A stretch of DNA of 64,000 nucleotides, from assembly GCA_029263075.1 (NCBI GenBank), contig JAJCYE010000108.1, forward strand, positions 7,675 through 71,674, in the 5' to 3' direction. A model generated the notes under the pieces. The model ran no database searches. It was given only the letters and a program-made list of their open reading frames with translations, and was not told the DNA's origin. This stretch comes from Actinomycetes bacterium (GTDB lineage: Bacteria > Actinomycetota > CADDZG01 > JAHWKV01). Made by a program: the position numbers and the translations under genes. Of the stretch, positions 25,550-62,417 are shown one piece after another; positions within the stretch are counted from its first letter, which is position 1, and each line of letters begins with the position of its first letter.

Positions 25550-28051
25550 CTACCAGGCCGGGCTGCCGTCCCCCGAGTGGGGAGCCCAGACCAAGGCCAA
25601 CAGGGGTACCGAGATCCCGGTCTTCTTGGGCTTGATGCTTATTGATTCAAGCGGCTCGGTCATCGGGTCGCTCGATCCGGAGAGTGCTTCGGCGTCGGTC
25701 CGGAACTGGGATTGAAGGTCTGCCAACTGAACTTCCAGCGCCGCCACCGTCTCTTCGGCACGCTTGACGTCGCCCGACTGCTGGACCGCCCGACCGACCC
25801 CGCGGGCCGCGGTGGTGGCCCGGCCCAGGCTCCCCAAGCCGCTCTTGCGGCCGAGGAAGGCCCCCAGCACTGTCCCCCCGATAGAGATAGCAGTCTGCAA
25901 CTTTGCCTGTTTCGCCTGCTCCGCCTCCCTGTCGGTGGCAGCGACCGCCCTTCGGATCCGTTCCTCCAGAGCAGTGGTCTTGGCGGCGTACTTGCGGCGC
26001 AACTCCTCCGCCCCGGCGTCCCGTTTCTCCCGGGCGGCCTGCTGCAGACGCAACCTGAAGTCGGACTCGGACTCGCCGGGGTGGGAGTACTCCTTTAGCG
26101 ATGGGCTGGACAACAGCTCAACCGACTGACTGCCGTAGATCCACCTGGCCAGGTCCTTTTGCCAGCCGGTGAACGACGCCTTCTTCCCGGCAGCGGCGGG
26201 TAGCGCGCCGTAAGCCGCGCCCTCCTCGGGATCGGTCTCCAGGTCCGTCGCCCCCAGCTCGATGGGTTCTGCTCGTTCCCAGTCGACGGGTACCGGCCCG
26301 TCGAACAGCGCTGCGAGCAGGTTGAGGTTTTTGGCCAAGTCCACCCCGGACCGCGTGTCGGTGAATTGCACTGCGGCGACGCCGAAGATCGTGGCCCTAT
26401 AGGTCAGCGGACCGCGGTTGCGGGCGGGCAGGAAAAACTGCGGGATGTCCGGGGGGAGGACCGGGCGGGCCGTTCCCGCCGAGGGGTCCTGCGTGCCGGG
26501 CGCCGCAGGCGTGGCGGTGGGGGCGGGAGCCCCGGGGCCGGGGTTAGGATGCGTGCCGGCTGCGGGAGGGGCTTGCAGTGTGCCGGCCACCCCATCGGCC
26601 GGCGGGGATCCGCCCGCCGGGTTCTTGACCGGATCCATGAGAGTGCGGATCTGGGACTGGGTGATGGGTCCGGCCAAATAGGAGAGGGTCCACCGGGTCT
26701 GGAACACCGCCGGCTCGTCTTCGTGCACGTTGTTCATCAAAAAGACCCGCTTGCCCAGACCGGCGAGCGTCTCTTCCATGGCGCCCCGGTCAAAGGCGGC
26801 GCCGCTGCCTGCGGCGGCGCCCTCAAGACCCTCGAGCACCCGCTGTTTGTCCCGAGCGGTCTGCAGCCTGCCTATCAGCCAGGTCCCGGCGTTCGAGAGG
26901 CCCTTGTAGTCCAGGTCCACCGGGTTCTGGGTCGCCAGCACCACCCCCACGCCGAACGCCCGGGCTTGTTTCATCAACGTAAGAAGAGCCGCCTTGGAGG
27001 GCGGGTTGGCCACCGGCGGGAAGTAGCCGGCTATTTCGTCCATGTAGAGCAGGGCCCGCAGGCTTGTGGTCCCGGACTGGGAGCGGGTCCAGGCCAGCAT
27101 CTCCGATAGGACGAGCGAGACGAAGAACATCCGCTCGGCGTCGTTGAGGTGCGCGATGGACAGGATGGCCAGCCTGGGTTTGCCTTCGGGGGTCCGGAGC
27201 ATCGTCTGGATGTCCAGGGGTTCGCCCTGCATCCACGACTCGAAACTCGGCGAAGCCAGCAGGCTGTTTATGCCCAGTGCCAGCTCGAAGCGGTCCTTGG
27301 CGGGGAAAAAGCTCTCGATCTCCATTACGCCCACCCGGGTCATAGGGGGGTTCTGGATCAACTGGATCAATTCCGCCAGATCCAGCGTGCGGCCCTCCCG
27401 CCAGCAGGTGGTCAGGATCGTGGAGACCAGGATGTGTTCGCGGCTGCGGATGGGGTCGGCCTCAATGCCGGCCAGGGAGAGTAGGGCGCTCACAGTGCCG
27501 GTGACCCGATCGCCCAGGGCCTCGGAGTCCGCAAGCACCGCTGCCGATGGCGGGGCGAAAGATTTGAGCACCGCGACCGGGACGCCTGCCTGGCTCCCGG
27601 GGGTGTAAATCGTCACCTCGGCCGCATCCTTTAGCCGGCGGACCCGCTCCCCGTCCTGTCCCCACTGCTGCAGACCTCCGCGCCAGGTTTCTGCCTGCCG
27701 GGCCGCTAGATCGGGGATCGAAACCCCCTGCGAAGCCGCTTCATCGGCGTTGACCCAGGGTTCGAAGTCCGCCGGGGCGAGATCGGGGAAGGTCAACATC
27801 AAATTGGCCAGGTCGCCTTTGGGGTCGATGAGGATGGCGGGGATGCCGTCGATGGCGGCCTCCTCGATCAACCCCAGGCACAGACCGGTCTTGCCGCTGC
27901 CGGTCATGCCGACGCAGACCGCGTGGGTGGTGAGGTCTTTTGAGTCGTACAGAAGTAGATCGGGCTCGGCCTCGCCGGCCGCCATGTTGTAGCGGCGGCC
28001 CAGGTAAAACGATCCGAGCTTCTCGTAATCGGCATCCATGGCGACCGTCAT
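25550..28051 (-). CDS. HerA/FtsK-superfamily P-loop ATPase (DUF87-like) with long C-terminal Pro-rich linker, extra domain and coiled-coil tail
   Basis: Walker A VGMTGSGKTG, Walker B LLYMDEIAGYF and sensor VVLATQNP are all present. A Pro/Ala-rich low-complexity linker follows, then a coiled coil (ELRRKYAAKTTALEERIRRA...) and a Gly-rich hydrophobic segment. The gene is solo: it is convergent with purM and divergent from araC. Confidence 0.6.
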   Translation of the reverse strand: MTVAMDADYEKLGSFYLGRRYNMAAGEAEPDLLLYDSKDLTTHAVCVGMTGSGKTGLCLGLIEEAAIDGIPAILIDPKGDLANLMLTFPDLAPADFEPWVNADEAASQGVSIPDLAARQAETWRGGLQQWGQDGERVRRLKDAAEVTIYTPGSQAGVPVAVLKSFAPPSAAVLADSEALGDRVTGTVSALLSLAGIEADPIRSREHILVSTILTTCWREGRTLDLAELIQLIQNPPMTRVGVMEIESFFPAKDRFELALGINSLLASPSFESWMQGEPLDIQTMLRTPEGKPRLAILSIAHLNDAERMFFVSLVLSEMLAWTRSQSGTTSLRALLYMDEIAGYFPPVANPPSKAALLTLMKQARAFGVGVVLATQNPVDLDYKGLSNAGTWLIGRLQTARDKQRVLEGLEGAAAGSGAAFDRGAMEETLAGLGKRVFLMNNVHEDEPAVFQTRWTLSYLAGPITQSQIRTLMDPVKNPAGGSPPADGVAGTLQAPPAAGTHPNPGPGAPAPTATPAAPGTQDPSAGTARPVLPPDIPQFFLPARNRGPLTYRATIFGVAAVQFTDTRSGVDLAKNLNLLAALFDGPVPVDWERAEPIELGATDLETDPEEGAAYGALPAAAGKKASFTGWQKDLARWIYGSQSVELLSSPSLKEYSHPGESESDFRLRLQQAAREKRDAGAEELRRKYAAKTTALEERIRRAVAATDREAEQAKQAKLQTAISIGGTVLGAFLGRKSGLGSLGRATTAARGVGRAVQQSGDVKRAEETVAALEVQLADLQSQFRTDAEALSGSSDPMTEPLESISIKPKKTGISVPLLALVWAPHSGDGSPAW

Positions 28052-29078: not shown

Positions 29079-31469
<2,391 letters not shown>

Positions 31470-39618: not shown

Positions 39619-40248
39619 TTACTGCCCACCCGGCGATGGGTGCCACGCCGGGTACGGAATGCCGGCCAGCCGGTTGATCACGTAGCCCTGTGCCACCAGC
39701 AGCACGACCGCGACCATCAGGACTGCGATCTGCTGGGGTTCCCGGAGGATCCCCAGGGAGATAATTAGCGTGGTCGCCCCGGCAGGGGGATGCGGAACTC
39801 GAAGCCACACCATCGCACCGCTGGTGAGACCCAGCGATAGGGCGGCGGCACCCACCCGCGCTCCGGTGACGCTGGCGGCAAGCGCCGGCAGGGCGTCGGT
39901 CAACCCGAAGACCACCAGCGACAGGTACCCGGCGGCGGCGCCGATCAGGTGACCGCCGATGGTATTGCGCGGAGAGGAGGCCGGCAGCATTGGCGTGTAG
40001 AACAGCAGAAAAGCGGTGGGCCCAAGCGAGGGGAACACGAACGGCTCCCCGGTGACGTAGGCGACGAACGCCATTGCGCCGATCGCGATGAGCCCATTGA
40101 CGAAGGCAAACATCCCGAGCACCACTCGAGAGCTGTGCCGTTGCGTGAGCACCGGCAGGCGCATCCGGTGGGCAAGGCCGAACACGATCGCGGCCATGTC
40201 CCCACCGATCGGACCGGGTCGCTCCGGTGGATCGGAGGGCGGACTCAC
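39619..40248 (-). CDS. HPP-family membrane protein (family of plastid/cyanobacterial nitrite transporters)
   Basis: The literal HPPAGAT motif and 4-5 TM helices. The 4-bp overlap with the upstream small TM gene makes it the last gene of the Mo-enzyme operon. Confidence 0.7.
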   Translation of the reverse strand: MSPPSDPPERPGPIGGDMAAIVFGLAHRMRLPVLTQRHSSRVVLGMFAFVNGLIAIGAMAFVAYVTGEPFVFPSLGPTAFLLFYTPMLPASSPRNTIGGHLIGAAAGYLSLVVFGLTDALPALAASVTGARVGAAALSLGLTSGAMVWLRVPHPPAGATTLIISLGILREPQQIAVLMVAVVLLVAQGYVINRLAGIPYPAWHPSPGGQ

Positions 40249-40490
40249 CTCAGGTACCGGTAGAAGGCAGCCGCTCCGGCCGCCAGCAGGACCGAGAAAC
40301 CCGCCGTGATCCAGGCGAGTCCGGCATCATGCGCCAGCAGGGCATCCAGGCCCACCGTCAACAGGAAGATCTGCAGAGAGAGCAGCACCACGACGAACAC
40401 CCCCACGGCAACCGAGACCTCACGGCTTGCCCGGGCCCTCTGCGGCCGGGGAAGGTGAGGCTCCCGATGCTGATGTCTTGACGGGCTCAC
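40245..40490 (-). CDS. Small hypothetical membrane protein (2 TM)
   Basis: 81 aa, translationally coupled on both sides (4-bp overlaps). Two hydrophobic helices. Confidence 0.4.
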   Translation of the reverse strand: MSPSRHQHREPHLPRPQRARASREVSVAVGVFVVVLLSLQIFLLTVGLDALLAHDAGLAWITAGFSVLLAAGAAAFYRYLR

Positions 40491-41020
40491 CTAGACCTCT
40501 CCCCCAGGGCGGCGAGTGCCCACACCATCCCATCCTCCCTCAGCTCCACGTCGATTCGACCCAGCGGCCGTTGCGGCGGCCCGGACAGGACCTCCCCGGT
40601 ATCGGCGTCGAAGTGGCCTTCGTGGCACGGGCACTCCACTCCCCCAGACTCCGGGGAGAAGTAGACGACGCAACCCAGGTGGGTGCACTTCTGGCTGAAG
40701 GCCCGCAGCCGGCGTCCCGGGAGGTGGAAGAGGATGGCGGGGTCGGCTCCGGTCGGATAGTTGAACAGATGGGCCTGGTTCTCGGGCAGCTGGTCGAGGG
40801 CGACGATCGGGCGAGGCTCCCCCCGGTTGACCGATCGCAGCGAAGCCCACACCGCAACCCCCACGTTGCCGGCGGCGAAGCCGCCGCACGCTAGGACGAG
40901 GTAGCGCACGAACTCCCGGCGGGTCACCTCATCCTCGCCGGCCGACGTGTACGGGAAGTCCCGCCGCCACACCGGATCCGGCGGGGGCGGGGCCTGTCCG
41001 CCGCCTTGCGGATCGTTCAC
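40487..41020 (-). CDS. Tat-exported, membrane-anchored Rieske [2Fe-2S] protein (high-potential type)
   Basis: Twin-arginine motif TRREFVRYL followed by a TM helix. Rieske boxes CTHLGC and CPCHEGH carry the extra disulfide cysteines typical of bc1/b6f/arsenite-oxidase Rieske proteins. Confidence 0.85.
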
Positions 41021-41697
41021 TCCCCGGACGCCATCTCATTCAGCCCGAACGGGTCGTCCTGCCATGGGCGCTCCCCGTCGCCGGCGGTGACATCAATCGA
41101 CCCCGGAGCATCGGCGACCGTGTGCACCTTGGTGGCCACGTACTGGTTGCCGAACCACCACTCGTTGACGAGCGTTCCCTGCCGGGTGGCGGCAAACTCC
41201 TCGGGGGTGCCGAACCACAACGCCTCGCTCGGACAGACCGACGCGCACATCGGCTTCAGTCCCACCGAGGAGCGGTCGTAGCACATGTCGCACTTCATCA
41301 TCTGGTCGAATTCGGACACGTACTTCGGAACGCCGAATGGGCAGGCGAGCACGCAGTTCGAGCACCCGATGCAGCGCGGCTTGAGCGACGACTGCACCAC
41401 CCCGTCCTCGTTCTGCTTGATCGCGTCGGTCGGGCAGACCTCGGCGCAGGTCGGATCTTCGCAGTGCATGCACACCATCGGCGCGGTCTGGGTGCTGGCC
41501 GCCCGGTCGACCTCGTCCAGGTGGATCATCGAGTGGCCCCGATGGGTGCCGCACTCCTCGCACGCCTGCACGCAGGCGTTGCAGCCTATGCACCGGCTCT
41601 GGTCGATGACGAAGATGTTTTCGCCGAAGGCATCCTGGCGCGGCGGGCGCGGGGGCGGCTTGCGGCCGATGGACACCGGGACGACGTGACCGGTCAT
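41017..41697 (-). CDS. 4Fe-4S ferredoxin-type electron-transfer subunit (DmsB/HybA/NrfC-like)
   Basis: Four CxxCxxCxxxCP-type cluster motifs ([47 protein letters not shown]...CASVCP). Confidence 0.85.
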
Positions 41698-43925
41698 GGC
41701 TCCTCCTTCGGTTCGACCAGATCCATCTCCCGCTCGTCGATCACCGCCGAGCCGGGAGGTCCAACCCGCTCCAAGCGCACCGCCGAAACCTTGAACTCGG
41801 GAATCTTGGATAACGGGTCGAGCGCCCGGTTGGTGAGTTGGTTGGCCGCCCGGTTGCCGGCCCAGTGGTAGGGGATGAAGATCGTGTCCGGGCGGATGGT
41901 GGATACCACCCTGGCGGGCAGCGTCATCGAGCCCCTTCGGGAGGTCACCCTCACCTGGTCGCCGGTCTCGATCCCGTGCCGGCCGGCAAGGTTGGGATGG
42001 ATCTCACACAGCGGCTCCGGGTACTGGGCGACCAGGGGGCCGATCCGCCGGGTCTGGGTGCCCGACAGATACTGGCTCACCACCCGGCCCGTGGTCAGCC
42101 ACACCGGATAGTCGGTGTCGACCACCTCCGCCGGGGGCCGGTAGCGCACCGGGTTGAACCTGCCCCGCCCGTCCTCGGTGTAGAAGAGCCCTCCCTCATA
42201 GAGGCGCCGGATGCCCGGGTGGCCCTCCTCCGGGCAGGGCCAGAACACCCCGAGCTCCTGTTCGATCCGTTCCCAGGTGATGCCGTAGTAATCGGCACTG
42301 CCGCCCTTCGAAGCCACCCGCAGTTCGTCGAACATCTCCCGCGACGAGGAGTACGGGAAATACTTGCCCTTTCCGAGGCGGCGGGCCAGGTCGCATAGGA
42401 TCTCCCAGTCCAGTCGAGCGTTTCCCGGCGGCGACTTCGACGGGTTGAGCTTGATCACCCGCCCTTCCAGGCTTGTCGACGTTCCTTCGTCCTCCTCGTG
42501 CAGCGACCCGGGCAGAACGATGTCGGCGTGGAACCCGGTCTCAGGTAGGAAGAAGTCGATGATGGCGTAGAACTCCAGCTTGTCGAGTGCCTCTTTGGTG
42601 AACCTCGTGTCGGGCAGCGAGACGACCGGGTTGAAGCAGATCGACAGCAGTCCTTTGATCTCGCCCCGGTGGATCGCCTCCACGATCTCCTGAGCGGTCA
42701 GCCCTTTGCCGGGGATCTCGTCCACCTCACAACCCCAGACCGACGCAACGTAGGCTCGATGTTCGGGGTTGGTGATGTCGCGGTTGCCCGGGAGCTGCTC
42801 GCACTTGTGCCCGTGCTCCCGGCCACCCTGGCCGTTGCCCTGCCCGGTGATGGTCGTGACCCCGCAGCCTGGCTTTCCGTACTTACCGGTGGCCAGGCCG
42901 AGGTTGATGCATGCCCACACGTTCTCCACCCCCTTGGTGTGGTGCTCAAGCCCGCGGGCGTGCAGCAGCATCCCGGTCTTGGAGGTTCCCCACCACTCCG
43001 CCGCCTGCTCGATGCGGCCGGCCGGCACCCCGGTGACCCCCTCCGCCCAGCGGGGGGTGTGGTCCTTGACCGCCTCAGCGGCGGCCTCAAATCCCGTGGT
43101 GTGGTTGTCGATAAAGTCGTGGTCCAGCCAGTCCCGCTCGATGAGAACGTGCAGCATTGCACCCAGCAGCGCCGAGTCGGTCCCCGGGCGGAGCCCGAGA
43201 AACAGATCTGCGGTTCGGGCGGCCGGCGTGACCCGCGGGTCGGCGAAGATCAGCTTCGCCCCGTTGTCCCGGGCGCGCCAGATCCAGCTGGTGGTAATCG
43301 GGGCACACTCGGCGATGTTGGCGCCGATGACGAACACCACCTCGGCCAGCGGGATGTCGCTCCATGGGTTGGATGCCCGGTCAATCCCCAAAGCCTTCTT
43401 GTTCGCCACTCCGGCCGACACCATGCACAGCCGCCCGTTGTAGTCCAGGTTGGCTGTTCCCAGCGCCAGCCGGGCGAACTTGCCGATCATGTAGGACTTC
43501 TCGTTGTTGAGCGAGACCCCCGACAGCATGGCGAACGAGTCCTGCCCGTGAGCCTGCTGGATCCGGCGGATCTCGTTGACCGTGCGGTCCAGGGCGTGGT
43601 CCCACGACACCGTGCGAAACCCGTCGACCGAGCCCGGGTCCCGCTCCAGCGGATCGAGCAGGCGATCGGGGTGGGCGTTCTGCAGGTAGCGCTTCACCCC
43701 CTTGGGGCAGAGCTTGCCCTGATTGAAGGGGAACTCGTACCAGGGTTCGAAGCCGACCACCTCGTCATCTTTGACCTTGAGCTTGATGCCGCACTGCTGT
43801 CCGCAGAAGCAGCAGTGGGTCTTCACCTCCCGGTCGGCCTCTACCCCGGCGTTCCACCCCCCGGGGGGCTCCTGGTTCAGGTGTGGCCCGTAGCGGGCAA
43901 CCAGCTCCTGCTCGGTGAGCGGCAT
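41694..43925 (-). CDS. Molybdopterin oxidoreductase catalytic subunit, NasC/NarB-type (nitrate-reductase-like); no Tat signal
   Basis: N-terminal Fe-S motif [10 protein letters not shown], a [12 protein letters not shown] block and a C-terminal MGD-binding domain. No RR signal, so cytoplasmic. ATG at 43925 chosen; the ORF-track GTG start at 43991 would overlap the upstream gene by 58 bp. Confidence 0.8.
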
Positions 43926-45072: not shown

Positions 45073-45927
45073 TCAGGGCCAGGCTGCACTCAGCAGCGGA
45101 GTGGGCAGCGGACCGGTTCCACTGTTGGTTAAAGCGAGCACGGATGAGTCACCGGACCTAATGTCCGCGGCTACCGTCACCGACCCGGGCCCGCTGTCGG
45201 ACGACGAACCGGAGGAGGTCACCACCCGGTAGGCGGGCGGGGTGGGGATCGCGGCATCGGTCGGAGAGGGCAATGCAGCCCGCACGTCCAAAAGCGCGGA
45301 CCCCGGTTGCTCCCACCTTGCGGTGGCCTCCAGTTTTCCGCTGCGAGTTGGGTTCATCTCGAACGAAGGACACCCCCGCGGGGCGCAGGCTGCGTCCTGG
45401 GGGGCCGGGTCCAGGTTGGGCAGCTGGAACAGCACCGCCCGGTCGGCGGCGGTGTAGGAAAGGGCAACCTCCTGCAGGTCGACCAGGGTGGAGCGCCCGG
45501 CGAGTGAGATCTCGGCTCCCCTGATACCGGGGGCGACCGGGAGGTCGATTGGACTTCCGGCAACCGGGAGGACGCACAGCCTGCTGGGCGGAACGCTGGC
45601 GGGATCGGTGACCGAGCAGACGGTGACCGACTTCAACTCCTGGTCGATCTCGCCGGTGAGGGTGATTCTAATGTTGGGTGTGGAGGGGTTGACGAGAATC
45701 CGCACGCTGTTTCCGCCCTTTTCCGCACCGACCTTGAGCCTGAGTCGGTGAATTCGCACGGTGGTCTGGGCGTCCTCGTTGACCGATTCGGCCACGGCGG
45801 TGGGGGACACGGACGCTGCTCCCTTTTCCTGGCGGGCTGCTGCTCCGCCGGTGCGTGCGCCACCGCATGCCCCCAGAAGCAGGGTAAGGGTTGCGGCCAC
45901 TGCTAGGAGATTTCGAAAAGGGACCAC
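45073..45927 (-). CDS. Hypothetical lipoprotein
   Basis: Signal peptide plus lipobox LLGAC. Located upstream of the Mo-enzyme operon on the same strand. Confidence 0.5.
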   Translation of the reverse strand: MVPFRNLLAVAATLTLLLGACGGARTGGAAARQEKGAASVSPTAVAESVNEDAQTTVRIHRLRLKVGAEKGGNSVRILVNPSTPNIRITLTGEIDQELKSVTVCSVTDPASVPPSRLCVLPVAGSPIDLPVAPGIRGAEISLAGRSTLVDLQEVALSYTAADRAVLFQLPNLDPAPQDAACAPRGCPSFEMNPTRSGKLEATARWEQPGSALLDVRAALPSPTDAAIPTPPAYRVVTSSGSSSDSGPGSVTVAADIRSGDSSVLALTNSGTGPLPTPLLSAAWP

Positions 45928-55691: not shown

Positions 55692-56207
55692 TCATCCGCT
55701 GATCACCCCCCGGTTGCCAACTTCCCTCGCGGATCTCCTAGGAGGGACCCGGTTTGTTCGAGACGCCGTTGTTATGCAACTGACTATGGCAATCTCTGCA
55801 TTGTTAGTGCTGATCAGCCAGTAGGACCCAGCTGGAACCTCGAATGGAGTGAAATCATTCTCTACTACGCGAAAGTTCACCAAAGCATTGGACGGTCGGT
55901 TTCTCACAGCATCGAAGTCCTTCGGAGACCCCTCACCGACGTATAGACGTGTCGTTCCGACCTCGGATTCGCCGACATGACCGTGGCTGAATCCATACGC
56001 CGTGGCGTACAACTCTCCCCCTGTGGTGGTGAATCTAGCGGGCTCACCCCATGGCTGCCCAAGTTCAACCCGAGCCATTCCACCCGGACCGCACTCAGGA
56101 ACTAGGCCGGTCTTCTCGGGATCATCCCCGCATCCGGAAAGGAACAACAAGATCGCGAGCGCCCACGCTCCCCTCGTTCGCGTTCGGTCCCTCCGTGGTT
56201 TGGTCAC
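55692..56207 (-). CDS. Hypothetical lipoprotein (island gene)
   Basis: Signal peptide plus lipobox LSGC. Lower-GC codon usage. Confidence 0.5.
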   Translation of the reverse strand: MTKPRRDRTRTRGAWALAILLFLSGCGDDPEKTGLVPECGPGGMARVELGQPWGEPARFTTTGGELYATAYGFSHGHVGESEVGTTRLYVGEGSPKDFDAVRNRPSNALVNFRVVENDFTPFEVPAGSYWLISTNNAEIAIVSCITTASRTNRVPPRRSAREVGNRGVISG

Positions 56208-56294
56208 GGGCCTTCATCCAGATTCAGCGTCTCTGAAACCACACTACCCGTGAGACGACTCTTCACGGTTACTTGCAGCGAATCTGAAGCTTGG

Positions 56295-56855
56295 TCAAGG
56301 ATCGGAAGGTGAATAAGTACACCGGCCGTCAGCGTCGGCATTAAGCGTAATGAACTCATCGATCCCACCGTAGGAGACGTCCACCTTCTCAACGCCTGGG
56401 TTGCCTTGCCCGTCTTCAAAGCAGCACACGTAGATACCATAGGTTTCGCCTTCAGTTGGTGAACCCGGATACCTAACCAGCTGCTCACGCCCCACGCCGA
56501 CCCCACCAGCACCAATTCCATTCAGCCGAAACGCATGGACCCCTGCTGGAGCACTCGGCATCGTGACCGTGGCCTCAACTACACCGGATTCGTTGGCCAC
56601 CACCGAGCCCAGAACGGTGGGATCGGAGTGGAGACTTACGTCGACTTGGCTGCCGGGGCTGAAACCTCCGGCCAAAATGGTTACTGGGCTTCCGGCCGTT
56701 GTGTCGAAAGGAGCATTTCTGAAGCCCTGTCCGTCGAAGGTCGGTTCACTGGCTGATTTAAAGGCCGCTTGCGAACCGCACTGCTCCGAGCCTCCGTAGG
56801 TCTTTAGCACTTCGCAAGCCTGAATAGCGTGGCCCTCGAGATGGGCACACCTCAA
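56295..56855 (-). CDS. Hypothetical Cys/Gly-rich protein (island gene)
   Basis: 186-aa ORF just downstream of the membrane-protein gene. No recognised domain. Confidence 0.35.
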   Translation of the reverse strand: MRCAHLEGHAIQACEVLKTYGGSEQCGSQAAFKSASEPTFDGQGFRNAPFDTTAGSPVTILAGGFSPGSQVDVSLHSDPTVLGSVVANESGVVEATVTMPSAPAGVHAFRLNGIGAGGVGVGREQLVRYPGSPTEGETYGIYVCCFEDGQGNPGVEKVDVSYGGIDEFITLNADADGRCTYSPSDP

Positions 56856-56874
56856 TTGAGGGGTAGTCGCTGCG

Positions 56875-57576
56875 CTATAAGAATTGCTCTATACGTACGG
56901 GGACAGTTGACGTCACCTTAATAGATACGATCGTTAACTCCTCGAGTGGAAAGCCCTCTAGCTCCACGTTGTCTAACCCTTTCGTAGCGACGAATTTGCA
57001 GTTTTTGTCCTGGTTATTCGCCGAAGAGTCTCGAACCTCATCCACCCATCCGCTCATCAGCTCTCTTGCATCATTGCATGTTTCTTTGACGCCGGAGGAG
57101 GTCTGCCAAACGATTTTGGCTTCAGGGAACTGATCTGCCCTGCCCCCAGAGGACCTCGTCGTCCAGTTCGATGAGGCTGGGAAACTTTCTGCTACGCGAA
57201 GCTGGAGCTCGTAGGGCTCGCGAAGAAGCTTCTCCCTAAGGTCAAGGGCCGAATTGGCCATGAATATCGATGGGATCGCTAGCAAAAGGGCAATAGCGGC
57301 TGCCCAAATGCGCAGTCTTCTGTAAATGAGTCCAGCGCCGACGACCATTAGGCCAAGCAAAACAAGGCCAAGAGGAAAGTAGAGCTTCGAAGTAACTACT
57401 TTGCCAACTTCGTCGGCGTAGCTGACGCCTGGCTCGGAGAGGATCACAATCGACCGCACCATTGCTCGACCGGTCAAGAATCCGGAGATGAGAACCACCA
57501 GAGCAGAAAACGCCAAAGCGGCCCACGCAGCATCGAAGCGCCGGGCTGGCGGCGCGATTCCTCCCGAAGTGATCAT
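56875..57576 (-). CDS. Hypothetical membrane protein (3 TM + C-terminal soluble domain), translationally coupled to the giant gene
   Basis: 4-bp overlap with the stop of the 1614-aa gene. Three hydrophobic helices at the N-terminus. Confidence 0.5.
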   Translation of the reverse strand: MITSGGIAPPARRFDAAWAALAFSALVVLISGFLTGRAMVRSIVILSEPGVSYADEVGKVVTSKLYFPLGLVLLGLMVVGAGLIYRRLRIWAAAIALLLAIPSIFMANSALDLREKLLREPYELQLRVAESFPASSNWTTRSSGGRADQFPEAKIVWQTSSGVKETCNDARELMSGWVDEVRDSSANNQDKNCKFVATKGLDNVELEGFPLEELTIVSIKVTSTVPVRIEQFL

Positions 57577-60500
57577 GGCTGACTCTCCTCCACCACGCTT
57601 ACTAGAGCGGAATGCATCATTGAGTAACCGAGGGCATTCGGATGAAACGTTCTGTCGTCAGCTATGAGGTTGACCCACGCTGGTTCAGGTTGATGAAGTG
57701 CGTCATAAACGTCCTGAGGATCGTTGTTAGGCGTCAGTCCTGTGATCCACTCTTCGGGATTACAAACCTGATGATCATCGAACAGACCTTCCCCGATAAT
57801 GGCTGGCTCAGAGGAAAAGCCGCCACTTACTAGCTCGCCCCCAGATCGCACGATCTGGATGTTTTGAGCGTAATCCTCTGCGTTCACCGTGCTTACGGCG
57901 TCAATGATCACTGCATTAAATTGGGCGAACCGCGCACGTAGCCAATCTATCTCCTCAACACTTAGTAGCCCATCTCCCATGCACCGAACCGGTGCTATTC
58001 CCGGGGGAACGGGAACTGGCACGACATCGATTCTTTTGTTCTCATTGGTGAACATTTGAGGGTACGTAAAGACAATCAACTTAGCTTTCTCAGCCTTGTT
58101 GAGAATGTCTCTGTAGACGTCGGTCAGGTCATCCTCCATGCCGGCTATCTCAGTCGTTAGGTCCCGCGGTCCCCCAGGCTCGAACTGGGGTCGGCAGTCT
58201 CCCGGCCGCAGGCATGCATCGAGAACGTCGATCCAACGCAGATCGTTTCCACCCACCGAGATTGTCACGAGTTCGGTGTAATCCGGCAGGTCTTGGATCT
58301 GGCCTGGTATTTCAGTGGTCCAGTTACCTGCGCATGCCTTGAACTCAAAATCCCAGTCACTTTGACCTGCAGCGAGGAGCGGCCCGTATGCCTTACTCGA
58401 TCTCTTGCAGTCGTCGGCGTTGTTGTCCCAATCATAGGGACCAGCACCCTGGCCCGAGGAGAACGAATCACCAAGCGCCCAATAGGTGAACTGGTGAGGT
58501 GTGATGGGTTCCGAGGGCAGTGAAGGTTCCCCTTGACCGAGGTCGCTTTCGGCAACGACAGTGAACGTATACGCCATCCCATTAATGAGTCCGGTCACGT
58601 TGCTGGACGTAGCGTCTGGATCACTGATGGATAATCCAGCACATTCACAGACCGGATTGGAAATGATCGTGTAACCGGTGAGAGCGGCTCCATTCATAAG
58701 CTTCGGCGCATCCCATTCGATTAGAGCCGACGCGATTCCCGATGAACCTCGGACGTTCGTCGGTGCTTCCGGAGGCTCACGATCCGTCTCCGCCTGAGCC
58801 GGGAGTGATCGGTCGCCAATTCCTCTGCCATTTTCCGCAACGATTTCAAGCGTGTAGGTTGTAGCCGGATTCAATCCCTCAATGATCGTTGCGTATGTGG
58901 TGCCAGAGACTGATTTCCCCGTGCACTGGGAGCAGCTCGGAGAAACCTCTACTTTGTAAGCCGTAATGGGACCTCCATTGTCGCCAGGTATCCCATCTCT
59001 GAGGGGTGGCGGGTCCCAGCTGACCGTCGCTCTACGCAGGCCGCCAGATGCCTGGACGTTCACAGCCGCGAAGGGCTTTCCCGCAAATGACCCGCTGTCG
59101 GAGGCAGGTGAGTGATCACTGATGCCGAACTGGTTGGACGCCTGGACGGTGAAGAAGTACGGAGTCCCGTTAATCAGCCCGCTTACAGCCATCTGGGTGG
59201 TGGATGCTCCAACCGCTTCACTTCGAACGATCGCCTGCGTTGTCTCCCGATAGATGTTCACGGTATAGCCGGTAATGGAGCTGCCGTTGTCGCCGGGAAT
59301 GCCGTCTCTGGGTGCTGGCGGAGACCACGAAACCGTGGCTTCCTCACCAACGATCGTCGCGGTCGGCTTGGCCGGCGCAAACGGCACGCCGAGCGGGCTG
59401 ACCGTGTTCGACTGGGCAGACTCCGGACTGGCAACGATAAACAGCGTTGTAGCGATCACTTTGAAGTAGACCGGAGTTGCGTTTGGAAGATCGGTGATCG
59501 TCGCCGAGGTCGTTGCCGAGGTCTTCGGGGGACCGACCACAGCGCCATCAGATGCTCGGTAGGTCTTCACCGTATAACCGGTCACCAGCGGGAGGATCCC
59601 GCCGACTGAGGGGGCATTCCATGTGACCGTGGCCTCCCCGTCGCCCGCGGTAGCTTGAACGTTGGTCGGCGTGAGGATGTCCGCCGATTGAGTTACCGCA
59701 TTTGCCGAGGGGCTTGAGGCAGCACCGGGCGCAAGGATTCCGCCAATTACGTTCATCGCCGCAACCACAAACTTGTAGGTGTGGTCAGCAAGCAGGCCCT
59801 CGAAGTGCGCCGTGTTGGAGGACAAGCAGCTCCCCGCGCACTCAATCGGCGCCGGGCTTGGGCCGCCCCCCTGGTCGATCGCGGTGATAAGCATCTTGGT
59901 GATGGGTGAGCCGCCGTCGTCTGTCGGAGAGGTCCAAGTGACCTTGGCCATCTCAACCATACCGGTGCCAGTAACGTCGGTGGGAGCAGACGGACGTTGC
60001 GCAGCAATGACTACAACTGCGTTGGTTCCTGCAGCCGTCGCACTGTGGCTGACGGTGTTGGTGGCATACACGTAGAACCTATAGGTCGTGCCGGCCGTCA
60101 GATCGTCGAAGAAATCCTCCGTGCAGGTTGCGCAGGGGGTGCTGTATTTGTTCGCGTACTCAAGGGCCCCATTGGACAAGACCCTAAAGACGTAGACGAC
60201 GTGGACGCCCATGGTGGCGCCGCCGGTGCTCGACGATAAGGTCCAGCTCACTTTGACTCTACCGTCGGGCTGAGCGGTGGCCACTGCGTTTGTCGGAGGA
60301 CTTGGAATGGTCTTGGGCGTGACCGTGTTGGTTGTTGCTACCGTCCCCCATTGTCCGGCGTTGTAGGGAAAGATGTAGAAGAACTGGCTGGCGTTGGGCA
60401 GACCGGTGAAGCTGGTGGAGGTACAAGGCCCCGGGCTACATGAAACGGCCTTGCCGTCCCCCGATGGAGTGTTGTTGGCGTAATAGGGGTACACGGCATA

Positions 60501-62417
60501 AAGCAGCACCGGCGACCAGGGGTTTGTTGGTGCGGCGCCCCAATTGACCGTGACTGTTCCGTCCGGGTTGGCGGTAGCCGTCGCGTTTGCGGGTGCGCCG
60601 GGGACGCTGGCGCCGGGAACCGTGATCGTGCGGCATCCACCCCCTAGCAACGGGTTGGTCCCAGAGCCCGCAATATTCATGCCGTAGAAGCAGACGTTGT
60701 GGGTGCCGGGTGCGGCCGAGATCACGGCGCTGAAGCCGTGATTGTCGCCATAGCCGGGATAGTGGAGCCCAACGTCGGGGCGGGAGGTGTTGGCGTCGAG
60801 CACAACAAGTTTAGAACCCACGTAGATGTGGACCTGGGTCGAGGCGGCGGTGTCTGGGTCGATGACCCAGCCCCTGACCCGGATTCCTCCCGCAACCGGA
60901 GTCGACTCGTCGACGCTTCCGATCGGGTCACCCGTCGGGCCGGCCGTGCTGTAGTCGACCGACAGGTAGGGACCATTGCCGGCCTCAAACGACAGGTACT
61001 TTTTGTACTGGTTGTTGTCGGCTTCATTGGGGGCCCTGAACGAGAACGATCCTGCAGTCTGTCCTTCGGCAGCCATCTGCGCCACCTGCGGGGTGACCAC
61101 CCAGTGGGCCAGGCGGTTGGGACACGCGCCGCTGTGCCAGCCTCCGGTCGCCTGGTTGGAGTCGATGGAAGCTCCCGGGAAGGTCGTCATCGACGATCCG
61201 CTCCAGGGCTGGGTCACCCGGTAGACCGGGCCCGGACCGACGTTGCAGTTCCATGAATGCTCTTCGACGGCGTACAGGGTGGCGGAGTTGATTTGTTTGC
61301 CCGCCAGGGGTGCGGTATCGAAATGAGCGTAGGACTGCCCGATATGAACCCCGCCGTCGTAGGTGCCGACCTTGAGCTCGGGGTCGGCTGAGTTGTTGCG
61401 GGTGAAGTTGCGCATGACGTAGGTGTCATCGCCCCAGGTTCGAACCGCATGGATCTGGGGGTCCACGGTGACCGGCCAGACCCTCTCAGGGCTGCTGAGC
61501 CACTCCCGGCCCCGGTCTAGAGAAACCTCCAGCGCCACCCCGTCTTTGTGCGGGATCAGCGCATAGTCCACTGCGGTCGACACCGCAGACTCACCGGAGC
61601 GGGGGTCCAGGTTGGAGTCGAACATGAATCCATGGGGGGTCCGGGCCCACTCGTCACCCTTGGAATCCTTGTAGACGACATCGCCGTTGGCCTCGATCGA
61701 GGCCGTCAGGCCCTGAAGGATCAGAGGAAAGACAAACCGGGTGGGGGCATCGGGCGAGGAGAGGATCAGATCCTCTTTCAGGCCGTTTCTTTGTGAGGTG
61801 AGCCGGACATCGGTGAACTTTTTGACGTTGGAGTAGGTGACGGCGTCCTTGGCGACCTTGCCTTTGACCTTGGCGGCCTGATCGATGCCGAAAGAGACCG
61901 AGTGCGTGGAGTCGAGCTGAAGCTTGGCAAGGGTTTTAGCATTGGAGTAGTCCGCGATCTCCAGCCCAAAGCTGTTGGCCTTGTTCTTCAGCTTGCCTCC
62001 GGCAACCGGGGTAAGGGTGGAGTCGATCTCGACCCACTTACCATCCTTCTCAAAGTTGACGGCGTCTGAGTACAGGCGGGTCTCGAACTGGCCGGGCTTG
62101 GTGCCCGAGAAGGTCCTGGACGAAGCCGTCCGCTTCTCGATCAGTTCTTTGTTGGGGGTCCACGCCTCAACCGGAGGCGGGGTCTTGGACGGTTCGATCG
62201 GATACGCCTTGGGCGAGGTATCGGTGACATCTGGGGGCAGGACCAGGGCCGGCGCGCCTTTGGGCAGGGACTTCGGTGAGCTAACCTGGGTCGGCTCTTC
62301 AAGAGCCGAGGCCGTGGATGGGGTTAACCCCAGCAGCATCGACATCAACATGATCATCAGCGTGATTCTGCTGATCTGTGCGCGTGAGGTTGAAGCCCGG
62401 CGATACTTCCTTGGCAT
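57573..62417 (-). CDS. Giant secreted multidomain protein: signal peptide, N-terminal beta-rich domain, array of about 8 fibronectin-III-like repeats, C-terminal SGNH/GDSL hydrolase
   Basis: Signal peptide ...STASA/LEEP. Repeated FN3-like blocks (GSPITKM, VTGYTVKTY, GSSITGYTVNIY, GGPITAYKVEV, LTGYTIIS). SGNH blocks YWALGDSFSSG (GDS), ISVGGNDL (GxND) and a DxxH-containing tail. Confidence 0.8.
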   Translation of the reverse strand: MPRKYRRASTSRAQISRITLMIMLMSMLLGLTPSTASALEEPTQVSSPKSLPKGAPALVLPPDVTDTSPKAYPIEPSKTPPPVEAWTPNKELIEKRTASSRTFSGTKPGQFETRLYSDAVNFEKDGKWVEIDSTLTPVAGGKLKNKANSFGLEIADYSNAKTLAKLQLDSTHSVSFGIDQAAKVKGKVAKDAVTYSNVKKFTDVRLTSQRNGLKEDLILSSPDAPTRFVFPLILQGLTASIEANGDVVYKDSKGDEWARTPHGFMFDSNLDPRSGESAVSTAVDYALIPHKDGVALEVSLDRGREWLSSPERVWPVTVDPQIHAVRTWGDDTYVMRNFTRNNSADPELKVGTYDGGVHIGQSYAHFDTAPLAGKQINSATLYAVEEHSWNCNVGPGPVYRVTQPWSGSSMTTFPGASIDSNQATGGWHSGACPNRLAHWVVTPQVAQMAAEGQTAGSFSFRAPNEADNNQYKKYLSFEAGNGPYLSVDYSTAGPTGDPIGSVDESTPVAGGIRVRGWVIDPDTAASTQVHIYVGSKLVVLDANTSRPDVGLHYPGYGDNHGFSAVISAAPGTHNVCFYGMNIAGSGTNPLLGGGCRTITVPGASVPGAPANATATANPDGTVTVNWGAAPTNPWSPVLLYAVYPYYANNTPSGDGKAVSCSPGPCTSTSFTGLPNASQFFYIFPYNAGQWGTVATTNTVTPKTIPSPPTNAVATAQPDGRVKVSWTLSSSTGGATMGVHVVYVFRVLSNGALEYANKYSTPCATCTEDFFDDLTAGTTYRFYVYATNTVSHSATAAGTNAVVVIAAQRPSAPTDVTGTGMVEMAKVTWTSPTDDGGSPITKMLITAIDQGGGPSPAPIECAGSCLSSNTAHFEGLLADHTYKFVVAAMNVIGGILAPGAASSPSANAVTQSADILTPTNVQATAGDGEATVTWNAPSVGGILPLVTGYTVKTYRASDGAVVGPPKTSATTSATITDLPNATPVYFKVIATTLFIVASPESAQSNTVSPLGVPFAPAKPTATIVGEEATVSWSPPAPRDGIPGDNGSSITGYTVNIYRETTQAIVRSEAVGASTTQMAVSGLINGTPYFFTVQASNQFGISDHSPASDSGSFAGKPFAAVNVQASGGLRRATVSWDPPPLRDGIPGDNGGPITAYKVEVSPSCSQCTGKSVSGTTYATIIEGLNPATTYTLEIVAENGRGIGDRSLPAQAETDREPPEAPTNVRGSSGIASALIEWDAPKLMNGAALTGYTIISNPVCECAGLSISDPDATSSNVTGLINGMAYTFTVVAESDLGQGEPSLPSEPITPHQFTYWALGDSFSSGQGAGPYDWDNNADDCKRSSKAYGPLLAAGQSDWDFEFKACAGNWTTEIPGQIQDLPDYTELVTISVGGNDLRWIDVLDACLRPGDCRPQFEPGGPRDLTTEIAGMEDDLTDVYRDILNKAEKAKLIVFTYPQMFTNENKRIDVVPVPVPPGIAPVRCMGDGLLSVEEIDWLRARFAQFNAVIIDAVSTVNAEDYAQNIQIVRSGGELVSGGFSSEPAIIGEGLFDDHQVCNPEEWITGLTPNNDPQDVYDALHQPEPAWVNLIADDRTFHPNALGYSMMHSALVSVVEESQP

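Follow-up and report, generated by a model that had tools for sequence, protein, structure and literature searches.

What does a membrane-anchored Rieske [2Fe-2S] protein do inside a molybdoenzyme operon? The question is raised by a 64,000-nucleotide stretch of contig JAJCYE010000108.1 from an Actinomycetes bacterium (assembly GCA_029263075.1), the whole of which we call the window. Here the Rieske gene (40487-41020) is the fourth of six tightly packed genes on the minus strand, which encode in order a NarI-like membrane protein, the molybdoenzyme MopB, a ferredoxin (Fer4), the Rieske protein, the small membrane protein DUF6755 and an HPP-family transporter. A preliminary description of this DNA had recognised the ferredoxin and MopB as neighbours and proposed an undescribed electron route across the membrane, but it overlooked the NarI-like gene, the DUF6755 gene and the HPP transporter. 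The reading that we favour, at about even odds, is an uncharacterised nitrate reductase of five subunits that spans the membrane, has the Rieske protein as a fixed component and travels with a dedicated anion transporter.

The Rieske gene belongs to a conserved five-gene module

The genes from MopB to the transporter are translationally coupled, each overlapping the next by 4 nucleotides; the stop of Fer4 and the start of the Rieske gene share the letters GTGA, and DUF6755 overlaps the Rieske stop in the same way. A promoter and terminator scan of the operon gave nothing above chance. A scan for the module that kept one genome per species yielded 80 loci, mostly from Acidimicrobiia, and the order NarI-like, MopB, Fer4, Rieske, DUF6755 is kept in every sufficiently long locus among them, with DUF6755 after the Rieske gene in virtually every locus that extends far enough. 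The gene order is also the same around identical proteins from other assemblies, and the genes that flank the module vary between genomes. The 80 loci include the cultured Desertimonas flava and metagenome-assembled genomes (MAGs) assigned to Ilumatobacter, Aquihabitans and Microthrix; Actinomarinicola tropica and Iamia sp. SCSIO 61187 are further cultured carriers.

The same five-gene order is kept in three distant clades with 39-47% Rieske identity. As such, the placement of a Rieske gene beside a MopB gene, which the preliminary description had noticed in this one stretch, proves to be that of a fixed module. In the clade of relative P0141 (38 loci from soil metagenomes) all five genes are present, and the proteins are 43% (NarI-like), 55% (MopB) and 59% (Fer4) identical to those of the window. 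Relative P0164 has the five genes and an HPP gene, P0147 has MopB-Fer4-Rieske-DUF6755 and then a TDT/SLAC1 transporter, and P0139, on a short contig beginning just upstream of the Rieske gene, has Rieske-DUF6755 with a TDT/SLAC1 transporter. One family member comes from Ktedonobacterales, Chloroflexota, and P0219 (33% identity) stands alone in an unrelated context at the edge of the family.

The module is closely linked to anion transport. Among the 69 genome loci with at least 1.5 kb beyond the Rieske gene, an anion transporter lies directly after DUF6755 on the same strand in 68 (27 HPP, 41 TDT/SLAC1). In the P0141 clade (L089 1-3700; L094-L124, after the DUF6755-like gene) a hemerythrin-like gene often comes directly after the module, followed by a TDT or a NarK-type MFS transporter, and in one long contig of this clade a Crp/Fnr regulator, DUF1858/DUF2249 and a NarK-type porter (TIGR00886, 246 bits) lie upstream. 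The Fnr/Crp, hemerythrin and DUF2249 neighbours hint at nitrate reduction that responds to O2 or NO.

Some records call for caution. In MAGs labelled Burkholderiales, Binatia and Thermodesulfobacteriota (L005, L046, L080, L060) the module Rieske gene is 66-82% identical to that of the window, identities that point to binning contamination or recent horizontal transfer. Several long proteins of the 50%-identity library that look like Fer4-Rieske fusions (P0172, P0202, P0184, P0214, P0166) were set aside as products of frameshifts in noisy assemblies, where the overlapping genes for Fer4, Rieske and DUF6755 are read through.

A Rieske protein with a Tat motif, of a separate subfamily

The Rieske open reading frame (ORF) has a third-position guanine-plus-cytosine (GC) content of 0.85, similar to that of the adjoining real genes, and matches Pfam PF00355 with an E-value of 7.7e-10. 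A word-indexed search finds 2368 homologues and an exhaustive search 7097 at E<=1e-3; conservation was read from an alignment of 93 full-length relatives at 30-78% identity. The protein consists of a putatively cytoplasmic N-terminal motif (PxWRxDFP), a twin-arginine translocation (Tat) motif, a single transmembrane helix, a small Rieske head and, between these two, a linker of about 8 residues. The Tat motif and membrane anchor named in the preliminary description stand at the sequence level. The window protein reads TRREFVR, R34 is kept in 93/93 relatives, R35 in 92/93, F37 in 79/93 and an arginine or lysine at position 39 in 69/93. The Rieske Tat-signal region of Pfam PF10399 gives sub-threshold matches in 35/93 members (E 0.011 for the window protein), and the hydrophobic helix, with a family mean Kyte-Doolittle value of 1.6 for the best 19-mer, is predicted to be an uncleaved signal anchor. 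The motif and its conservation suggest that the protein is exported through Tat. The N-terminal motif P-x-W-R-x-D-F-P, to which the preliminary description made no reference, is also conserved (W18 and F22 each 67/93, P23 72/93), as is an acidic residue at position 29 (86/93).

The Rieske head likewise has the bc/Aio-type features ascribed to it earlier. The two cluster-binding boxes carry two disulfide cysteines, C112, H114, C117, C130, C132 and H133 are invariant in 93/93 relatives, and box I reads CTHLGCVV, which is of b6f/bc type. The AlphaFold2 model (mean predicted local distance difference test score, pLDDT, 91.1) has one long helix at residues 34-61 and a Rieske beta-domain at residues 70-173. 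Foldseek matches this model to AioB (8cgs_B, E 1.3e-9, TM-score 0.76, 25% identity) and to the bc-type Rieske protein of Chlorobaculum (8hn2, TM-score 0.80, root-mean-square deviation 1.9 Å), with later matches to Kuenenia Rieske proteins, dioxygenase ferredoxins and bc1/b6f subunits. Scores against the curated models are 45.7 for PetC (cut-off 250), 42.4 for actinobacterial QcrA (275), 38.1 for the proteobacterial Rieske protein (97.4), 32.6 bits for the arsenite oxidase small subunit TIGR02694 (95.65) and 19.3 for the NirD/NasG model TIGR02378 (74.65). Because all of these lie far under their cut-offs, the window protein belongs to a separate Rieske subfamily.

The name "high-potential" that the preliminary description gave to this protein is overstated. 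In the bc1 Rieske protein the cluster receives hydrogen bonds from a Ser and a Tyr, and these bonds and the disulfide are considered jointly to raise the potential to about +300 mV, while AioB Rieske proteins range from +130 to +225 mV (PMC3758308). Here the Ser and Tyr positions are occupied by G135 and F137, the Phe being nearly invariant in the family, and the potential is therefore expected nearer to that of AioB or of menaquinol-type Rieske proteins, in the lower part of the "high-potential" class; our prediction is about +100 to +200 mV.

Several established identities were rejected for this protein. A bc-type Rieske subunit (PetC, QcrA, PetA) would have a bc-type cytochrome b as partner, which is lacking here, and the scores are below the cut-offs. 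The ferredoxin of a ring-hydroxylating dioxygenase, the name that the Joint Genome Institute (JGI) gives to some members, does not fit the disulfide, the Tat motif, the helix or the gene context.

If the twin arginines were no export signal, the N-terminus would lie outside and the Rieske head in the cytoplasm, between the inner haem of the membrane subunit and the ferredoxin. The mean net charge, about +1.0 after the helix against -0.1 before it, would accord with such an orientation, as would the fact that every other redox subunit lacks a signal and that cytoplasmic Nas enzymes can have a soluble Rieske ferredoxin, such as NasG, as their partner (PMC3475470). The match to S/T-R-R-x-F-L-K is, however, near-perfect, and its arginines are near-invariant down to 30% identity. 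The disulfide cysteines are typical of extracytoplasmic Rieske proteins, box I is of the b6f/bc type, and the match to Rieske_2 (PF13806, E 0.076) is, like that to NirD/NasG, far under threshold. A non-exported Rieske head is thus very improbable, and a NasG/NirD ferredoxin was similarly rejected for a protein with a membrane anchor and a Tat motif.

A Nas/Nap-type molybdoenzyme and its ferredoxin

MopB is a molybdenum bis-pyranopterin guanine dinucleotide (Mo-bisPGD) enzyme of the Nas/Nap type. Its mechanical ORF reaches 43991, and homologues and gene calls begin at MPLTEQ. Of the NCBIfam models, NasC scores highest (783 bits, cut-off 1100), followed by Fdh-alpha (573), the two NapA models (253, cut-off 904; 238, cut-off 930), AioA (TIGR02693, 144.5, cut-off 359) and NarG (44.7, cut-off 1084). 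As NasC is the best model and yet its score falls under the cut-off, MopB constitutes a distinct subfamily. The molybdenum-ligand segment RLCMVSA aligns with RLCMASA of Desulfovibrio desulfuricans NapA, where formate dehydrogenases (FDHs) read RL(U/C)H. The nitrate-reductase signature RLCM(V/A)SA and a four-Cys site for the cluster FS0, both of them expected of NasC/NarB, are present and are kept in the distant clades.

Neither MopB nor Fer4 carries a signal peptide. The MopB N-terminus is conserved, and over more than 60 loci it shows no twin-arginine or hydrophobic (Tat or Sec) signal. Both neighbours named in the preliminary description are therefore real and signal-less, and the cytoplasmic location that it assigned to MopB is likely. 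Fer4 is of the DmsB/FdnH/PsrB type and would bind four [4Fe-4S] clusters in its four Cys groups. It matches Pfam Fer4_11 at 2.3e-21 and, with all NCBIfam scores below cut-off, the NCBIfam DmsB and FDH-beta models at about 1e-29, and its best PDB match is FdnH (96 bits).

Three known enzymes were rejected for MopB. Cytoplasmic FDHs are its best PDB sequence match, with Sec/Cys-His where MopB has Cys-Met. NapA is excluded by the lack of a Tat signal on MopB itself and by scores far under the cut-offs. Arsenite oxidase, of which the Rieske protein might have been the established small subunit with a conventional partner, is excluded by both subunits: each falls far below its Aio cut-off, and MopB has a Cys molybdenum ligand in a Cys-Met context and a four-Cys FS0.

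The enzyme could in principle run in reverse, oxidising in the cytoplasm a substrate, such as nitrite, that the transporter imports, and passing electrons out through the haems to the Rieske head and a high-potential acceptor chain, or it could act on another oxyanion such as chlorate, selenate or tellurite. The membrane potential would favour outward electron flow, MopB lies under the NasC equivalog cut-off, and the TDT family has members in tellurite resistance (TIGR00816 match) and in sulfite efflux. No nitrite oxidiser is known in these lineages, however, and none of the loci encodes an acceptor for the outer face; for electrons at +430 mV, a path through five ordinary four-Cys [4Fe-4S] sites would also be unlikely. 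The Rieske protein is the electron exit in Aio, the one characterised MopB-Rieske enzyme (PMC3758308), and PMC7438415, citing Maeda 2014, implicates the HPP family in nitrite transport and ties its proteins to nitrite uptake. Against this, the Cys-Met ligand context is identical to that of NapA, NasC is the best model, and a NarK-type nitrate/nitrite porter accompanies an Fnr/Crp regulator in one clade. Both the reverse direction and another oxyanion are accordingly judged improbable.

A NarI-like subunit predicted to span the membrane

Gene 1 encodes a candidate for the membrane partner that a transmembrane route would need. Its best hidden Markov model (HMM) matches are TmcC, QmoC and HmcE, all far under their equivalog cut-offs. 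The QmoC and TmcC models match 45/45 members of the gene 1 family (best 1e-9 and 5.7e-9), as does NarI-family PF02665 (best E 1.8e-5), for which the window protein itself scores 19.2 bits, under the cut-off of 22.9. Four histidines, H113, H171, H241 and H259, are conserved in every clade, including those at 43-47% identity, and fit two bis-His haems b, H113 with H259 at the inner face and H171 with H241 at the outer face. Hydrophobic segments and the spread of Lys and Arg predict six transmembrane helices, with both termini and two long K/R-rich loops in the cytoplasm. A C-terminal zinc-ribbon-like domain of four Cys (C284-x2-C287, C324-x2-C327) is universally conserved, and the predicted cytoplasmic mass comprises this 85-residue Cys4 domain and a 50-residue K/R-rich loop with 12 K/R. 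The AlphaFold2 model of gene 1 is poor (pLDDT 56.5, from a shallow alignment) and gives only noise in Foldseek; a profile search of the PDB with the gene 1 alignment found no match.

The presence of this subunit settles one part of the preliminary description and corrects another. No protein of the operon matches the cytochrome b family, and the membrane partner matches the NarI/TmcC-type models in all 45 family members, which agrees with the view of a molybdoenzyme operon and not of a bc complex. An undescribed transmembrane route had been supposed from the placement of the Rieske gene; the complex is indeed undescribed in the literature found, and the route would be supplied by the NarI/TmcC-like dihaem protein that had been passed over.

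Proposed arrangement of the complex

The sequences show the gene set and its conservation, the motifs, the absence of signal peptides and the nitrate-reductase signature. What we infer beyond this is an arrangement close to that of NarGHI, with its topology, its quinol donor, the direction in which electrons flow and the part that the Rieske cluster plays. MopB and the four-cluster ferredoxin would lie in the cytoplasm, docked on the cytoplasmic face of the dihaem protein as NarGH is on NarI. The Rieske protein would be inserted by Tat, its helix packing with the dihaem protein and DUF6755, its N-terminal peptide staying on the cytoplasmic face where the ferredoxin docks, and its [2Fe-2S] head held by the short tether on the outer face beside the outer haem. 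Menaquinol would be oxidised at the outer face, where the Rieske head and the outer haem would together make up the site, and electrons would traverse the membrane via the two haems to the four [4Fe-4S] clusters, FS0 and molybdenum, where nitrate would be reduced. The HPP, TDT or NarK transporter would exchange nitrate and nitrite across the membrane. The Rieske cluster may take part in quinol oxidation alongside the outer haem, act as a buffer for the second electron, or receive electrons from a donor on the outside, as has reportedly been proposed for iodate reductase.

Several lines of evidence point to this arrangement. The Rieske head is placed on the outer face because the Tat motif and the disulfide are strictly conserved. 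A Nar-like arrangement of the remaining subunits is suggested because MopB and Fer4 both lack a signal peptide, because the membrane subunit resembles a two-haem wire whose non-membrane mass is nearly all cytoplasmic, and because an anion transporter is almost always in the operon; such linkage is typical of the cytoplasm-facing Nar and Nas enzymes, and not of periplasmic Nap or Aio. An outside reductase fed by a wire from inside would, moreover, waste proton-motive force.

The Tat signal could alternatively serve its partners as well, a possibility that the preliminary description did not consider. As in Aio, the Rieske signal would then export a folded trimer with ferredoxin and MopB, the catalytic unit would lie outside, tethered by the Rieske helix, and the dihaem protein would connect it either with the quinone pool or with a donor in the cytoplasm. 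The long conserved region ahead of the twin arginines recalls the small subunits of hydrogenases, which are partner carriers, the Fer4 and Rieske genes overlap (GTGA), and a monoderm would need an uncleaved anchor for retaining an exported enzyme. AioB bears the Tat leader for signal-less AioA (PMC3758308), and the export of partners on one signal peptide is described as an established Tat mode in 10.1101/2023.11.02.564894. AioB chains are also the top Foldseek matches of the Rieske model, although this likeness is no stronger than that to the Chlorobaculum bc-type protein. MopB, however, is Nas-like and not AioA-like, and its FS0 face is one that usually docks a four-cluster subunit and not a Rieske protein. 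In the membrane subunit, conservation extends to both haem sites and to the large Cys4 domain on the cytoplasmic side, and a wire to an outside reductase would dissipate proton-motive force instead of building it. The transporter found in 68/69 loci would likewise meet no obvious need of an outward-facing enzyme. On balance, export of the whole catalytic unit seems rather unlikely.

Against the Nar-like nitrate reductase that we favour, several points must be set. A loop of the NarGHI type works without a Rieske protein, so that the role of the Rieske protein here is unexplained. Every member of the family is known from sequence alone. Because the AlphaFold2 model failed, the NarI-like assignment of gene 1 comes from HMM matches, which are weak; because MopB falls under the NCBI NasC cut-off (783 versus 1100), its substrate is uncertain; and because the K+R counts flanking the Rieske helix are nearly equal (3.1 versus 2.5), it is the RR motif by itself that indicates the orientation. 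The closest solved folds are those of AioB, the one Rieske protein known to ferry a signal-less MopB enzyme through Tat. Finally, the Fer4 and Rieske genes lie next to each other with coupled translation, which could point to contact between the two proteins.

A more specific idea, which we put forward tentatively and think unlikely, is that the Rieske protein, the NarI-type dihaem protein and DUF6755 form a new kind of quinol-oxidising module, in which a Qo-like split between the Rieske cluster and the outer haem would send low-potential electrons across the membrane to a Nas-type nitrate reductase. If true, Rieske-assisted quinol oxidation would have been invented a second time, independently and in a form unrelated to bc cytochrome b, and Nar and Nap would be joined by a third class of energy-conserving nitrate reductase.

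Features of the operon and other parts of the window

The coordinates of the six genes and of the motifs discussed above are collected in Table 1. For gene 6, gene calls elsewhere use a later start, which gives 192 residues.

Table 1 Genes and motifs of the molybdoenzyme-Rieske operon in the window
Feature	Position in window	Strand	Basis or remark
Gene 1, membrane protein of the NarI/TmcC/QmoC superfamily, 344 residues	43934-44968	-	HMM matches
Gene 2, Mo-bisPGD enzyme MopB, Nas/Nap type, 743 residues	41694-43925	-	Start MPLTEQ at 43925
MopB, four Cys for FS0	43788-43817 and 43698-43715 (KLCPKG)	-	Sequence reading
MopB, Mo-ligand Cys in RLCMVSA	43413-43433	-	Sequence reading
Gene 3, ferredoxin Fer4, DmsB/FdnH/PsrB type, 226 residues	41017-41697	-	No transmembrane helix
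Fer4, four groups of four Cys	41560-41592, 41434-41472, 41341-41373, 41233-41292	-	Sequence reading
Gene 4, Rieske [2Fe-2S] protein, 177 residues	40487-41020	-	Start codon GTG
Rieske, conserved N-terminal motif W18-R-R-D-F-P23	40952-40969	-	Family alignment; about 10 residues ahead of the twin arginines
Rieske, twin-arginine motif T33-R-R-E-F-V38	40907-40924	-	Direct sequence reading
Rieske, R39, completing the S/T-R-R-x-F-L-K Tat consensus	40904-40906	-	Direct sequence reading
Rieske, hydrophobic 22-residue helix, residues 40-62	40835-40903	-	Sequence reading
Rieske, box I C112-T-H-L-G-C117	40670-40687	-	Ligands C112, H114; disulfide Cys C117
Rieske, box II C130-P-C-H-E-G-H136	40613-40633	-	Ligands C130, H133; disulfide Cys C132
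Gene 5, DUF6755, two-helix transmembrane hairpin, 81 residues	40245-40490	-	PF20540, E 1.7e-6
Gene 6, HPP-family membrane protein	39619-40248	-	PF04982, 8.7e-27; overlaps DUF6755 by 4 nucleotides

Directly upstream of the operon, on the same strand, lies an ORF of 284 residues (45073-45927, minus strand) whose N-terminus, LLLGAC, resembles a lipoprotein signal; neither Pfam nor NCBIfam has a match for it, and it is no conserved neighbour of the module in other genomes. Elsewhere the window holds housekeeping genes (ClpB, purine synthesis, NDH-2, PutA, a P450); neither a nitrite reductase nor any other nitrogen-cycle gene was found there. Among the housekeeping genes are an 833-residue protein with a weak HerA-like ATPase match (25550-28051, minus strand) and a 796-residue ABC-type ATPase with a weak STAND-NTPase match (29079-31469, plus strand). 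A 1614-residue ORF (57573-62417, minus strand) combines five fibronectin type III domains with a GDSL lipase domain and is followed by three ORFs that lack a Pfam match (55692-57576, minus strand). In the region 55692-62417 the GC content drops to 0.555-0.587 at 56-60 kb, compared with about 0.65 elsewhere, and the region may be an acquired surface-protein island.

Annotation and significance

The complex appears under unrelated names. Its partner subunits are currently called "ubiquinol-cytochrome c reductase iron-sulfur subunit", "hypothetical protein" or "MFS transporter". Two homologues of gene 1, P0289 and P0344 (from Iamia sp. SCSIO 61187 and a third-party annotation (TPA) MAG), carry the NCBI name "MFS transporter", and most other sources have "hypothetical protein". 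For the NarI-like subunit the transporter name is likely a mis-annotation that hides the complex. No description of the gene set was found in the literature, including under DUF6755, in searched full texts that leave out most subscription journals, so that a prior description is possible; papers on Acidimicrobiia genomes likewise make no mention of the complex. It is widespread in soil and water Actinobacteria and apparently undescribed.

Acidimicrobiia occur in large numbers in soils, in fresh and sea water and in activated sludge, and surveys that use NarG and NapA as markers would miss the enzyme or file it as "assimilatory NasA". If it is a membrane-bound, quinol-linked nitrate reductase, the reading of nitrate turnover by these groups changes, and its Rieske protein would be the first to work with a NarI-type and not a bc-type cytochrome.

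Comparison with known systems

The window complex resembles the complex iron-sulfur molybdoenzymes (NarGHI, FdnGHI, PsrABC) and fits no defined family among them. Like NarGHI, it combines a molybdenum subunit and a subunit with four clusters with a NarI-like anchor, whose two His pairs would bind two haems; its catalytic part is probably cytoplasm-facing, and a nitrate/nitrite transporter is linked to the operon. In contrast, NarG has an Asp ligand and a His-Cys3 FS0, whereas the window MopB is of the Nas/Nap type with a Cys ligand, and the window ferredoxin is half the size of NarH and lacks its [3Fe-4S] site. The window anchor has six predicted helices and a Cys4 tail, the Rieske protein and DUF6755 are additional, and the operon has no narJ.

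The best HMM matches of the membrane subunit, TmcC, QmoC and HmcE, lead to the Tmc, Hmc and Qmo complexes of sulfate reducers, whose membrane subunits are dihaem wires joining a redox module on the outer face to an iron-sulfur module in the cytoplasm. There a multihaem cytochrome c forms the outer module and a CCG/HdrD-like protein the inner partner, whereas here the Rieske protein and the molybdoenzyme would serve, respectively, outside and inside.

Arsenite oxidase AioAB and iodate reductase IdrAB share with the window complex a small Tat-signal Rieske protein encoded beside a signal-less Mo-bisPGD enzyme. The same disulfide exists in A. faecalis AioB, and the potential is tuned by the same residues (PMC3758308). 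However, in AioA the cluster is [3Fe-4S] and molybdenum has no ligand from the protein, as opposed to the four-Cys FS0 and the Cys ligand in a NapA-like context found here, and Aio has no four-cluster ferredoxin, haem b membrane subunit or transporter.

Rieske proteins have been found near nitrate reductases before. In Paracoccus denitrificans a [2Fe-2S] protein of the Rieske type, NasG, feeds the Nas enzyme NasC (PMC3475470), and NasC is the best model for the window MopB. NasG, however, is soluble and NirD-like, has no Tat motif, helix or disulfide, and passes on electrons from NADH through NasB. The nar clusters of haloarchaea and Methanoperedens similarly contain a Rieske gene, and quinol oxidation is thought to feed the reductase (PMC4683180; PMC8301774). 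There the Rieske protein, encoded by narB, works with NarC, a cytochrome b of the bc type, and the NarG-type enzyme, which has a Tat signal itself, is directed outward, whereas the window complex has no bc-type cytochrome b, a NarI/TmcC-type partner and a signal-less MopB. Both precedents, haloarchaeal nar and Paracoccus NasG, thus differ in kind from the window complex.

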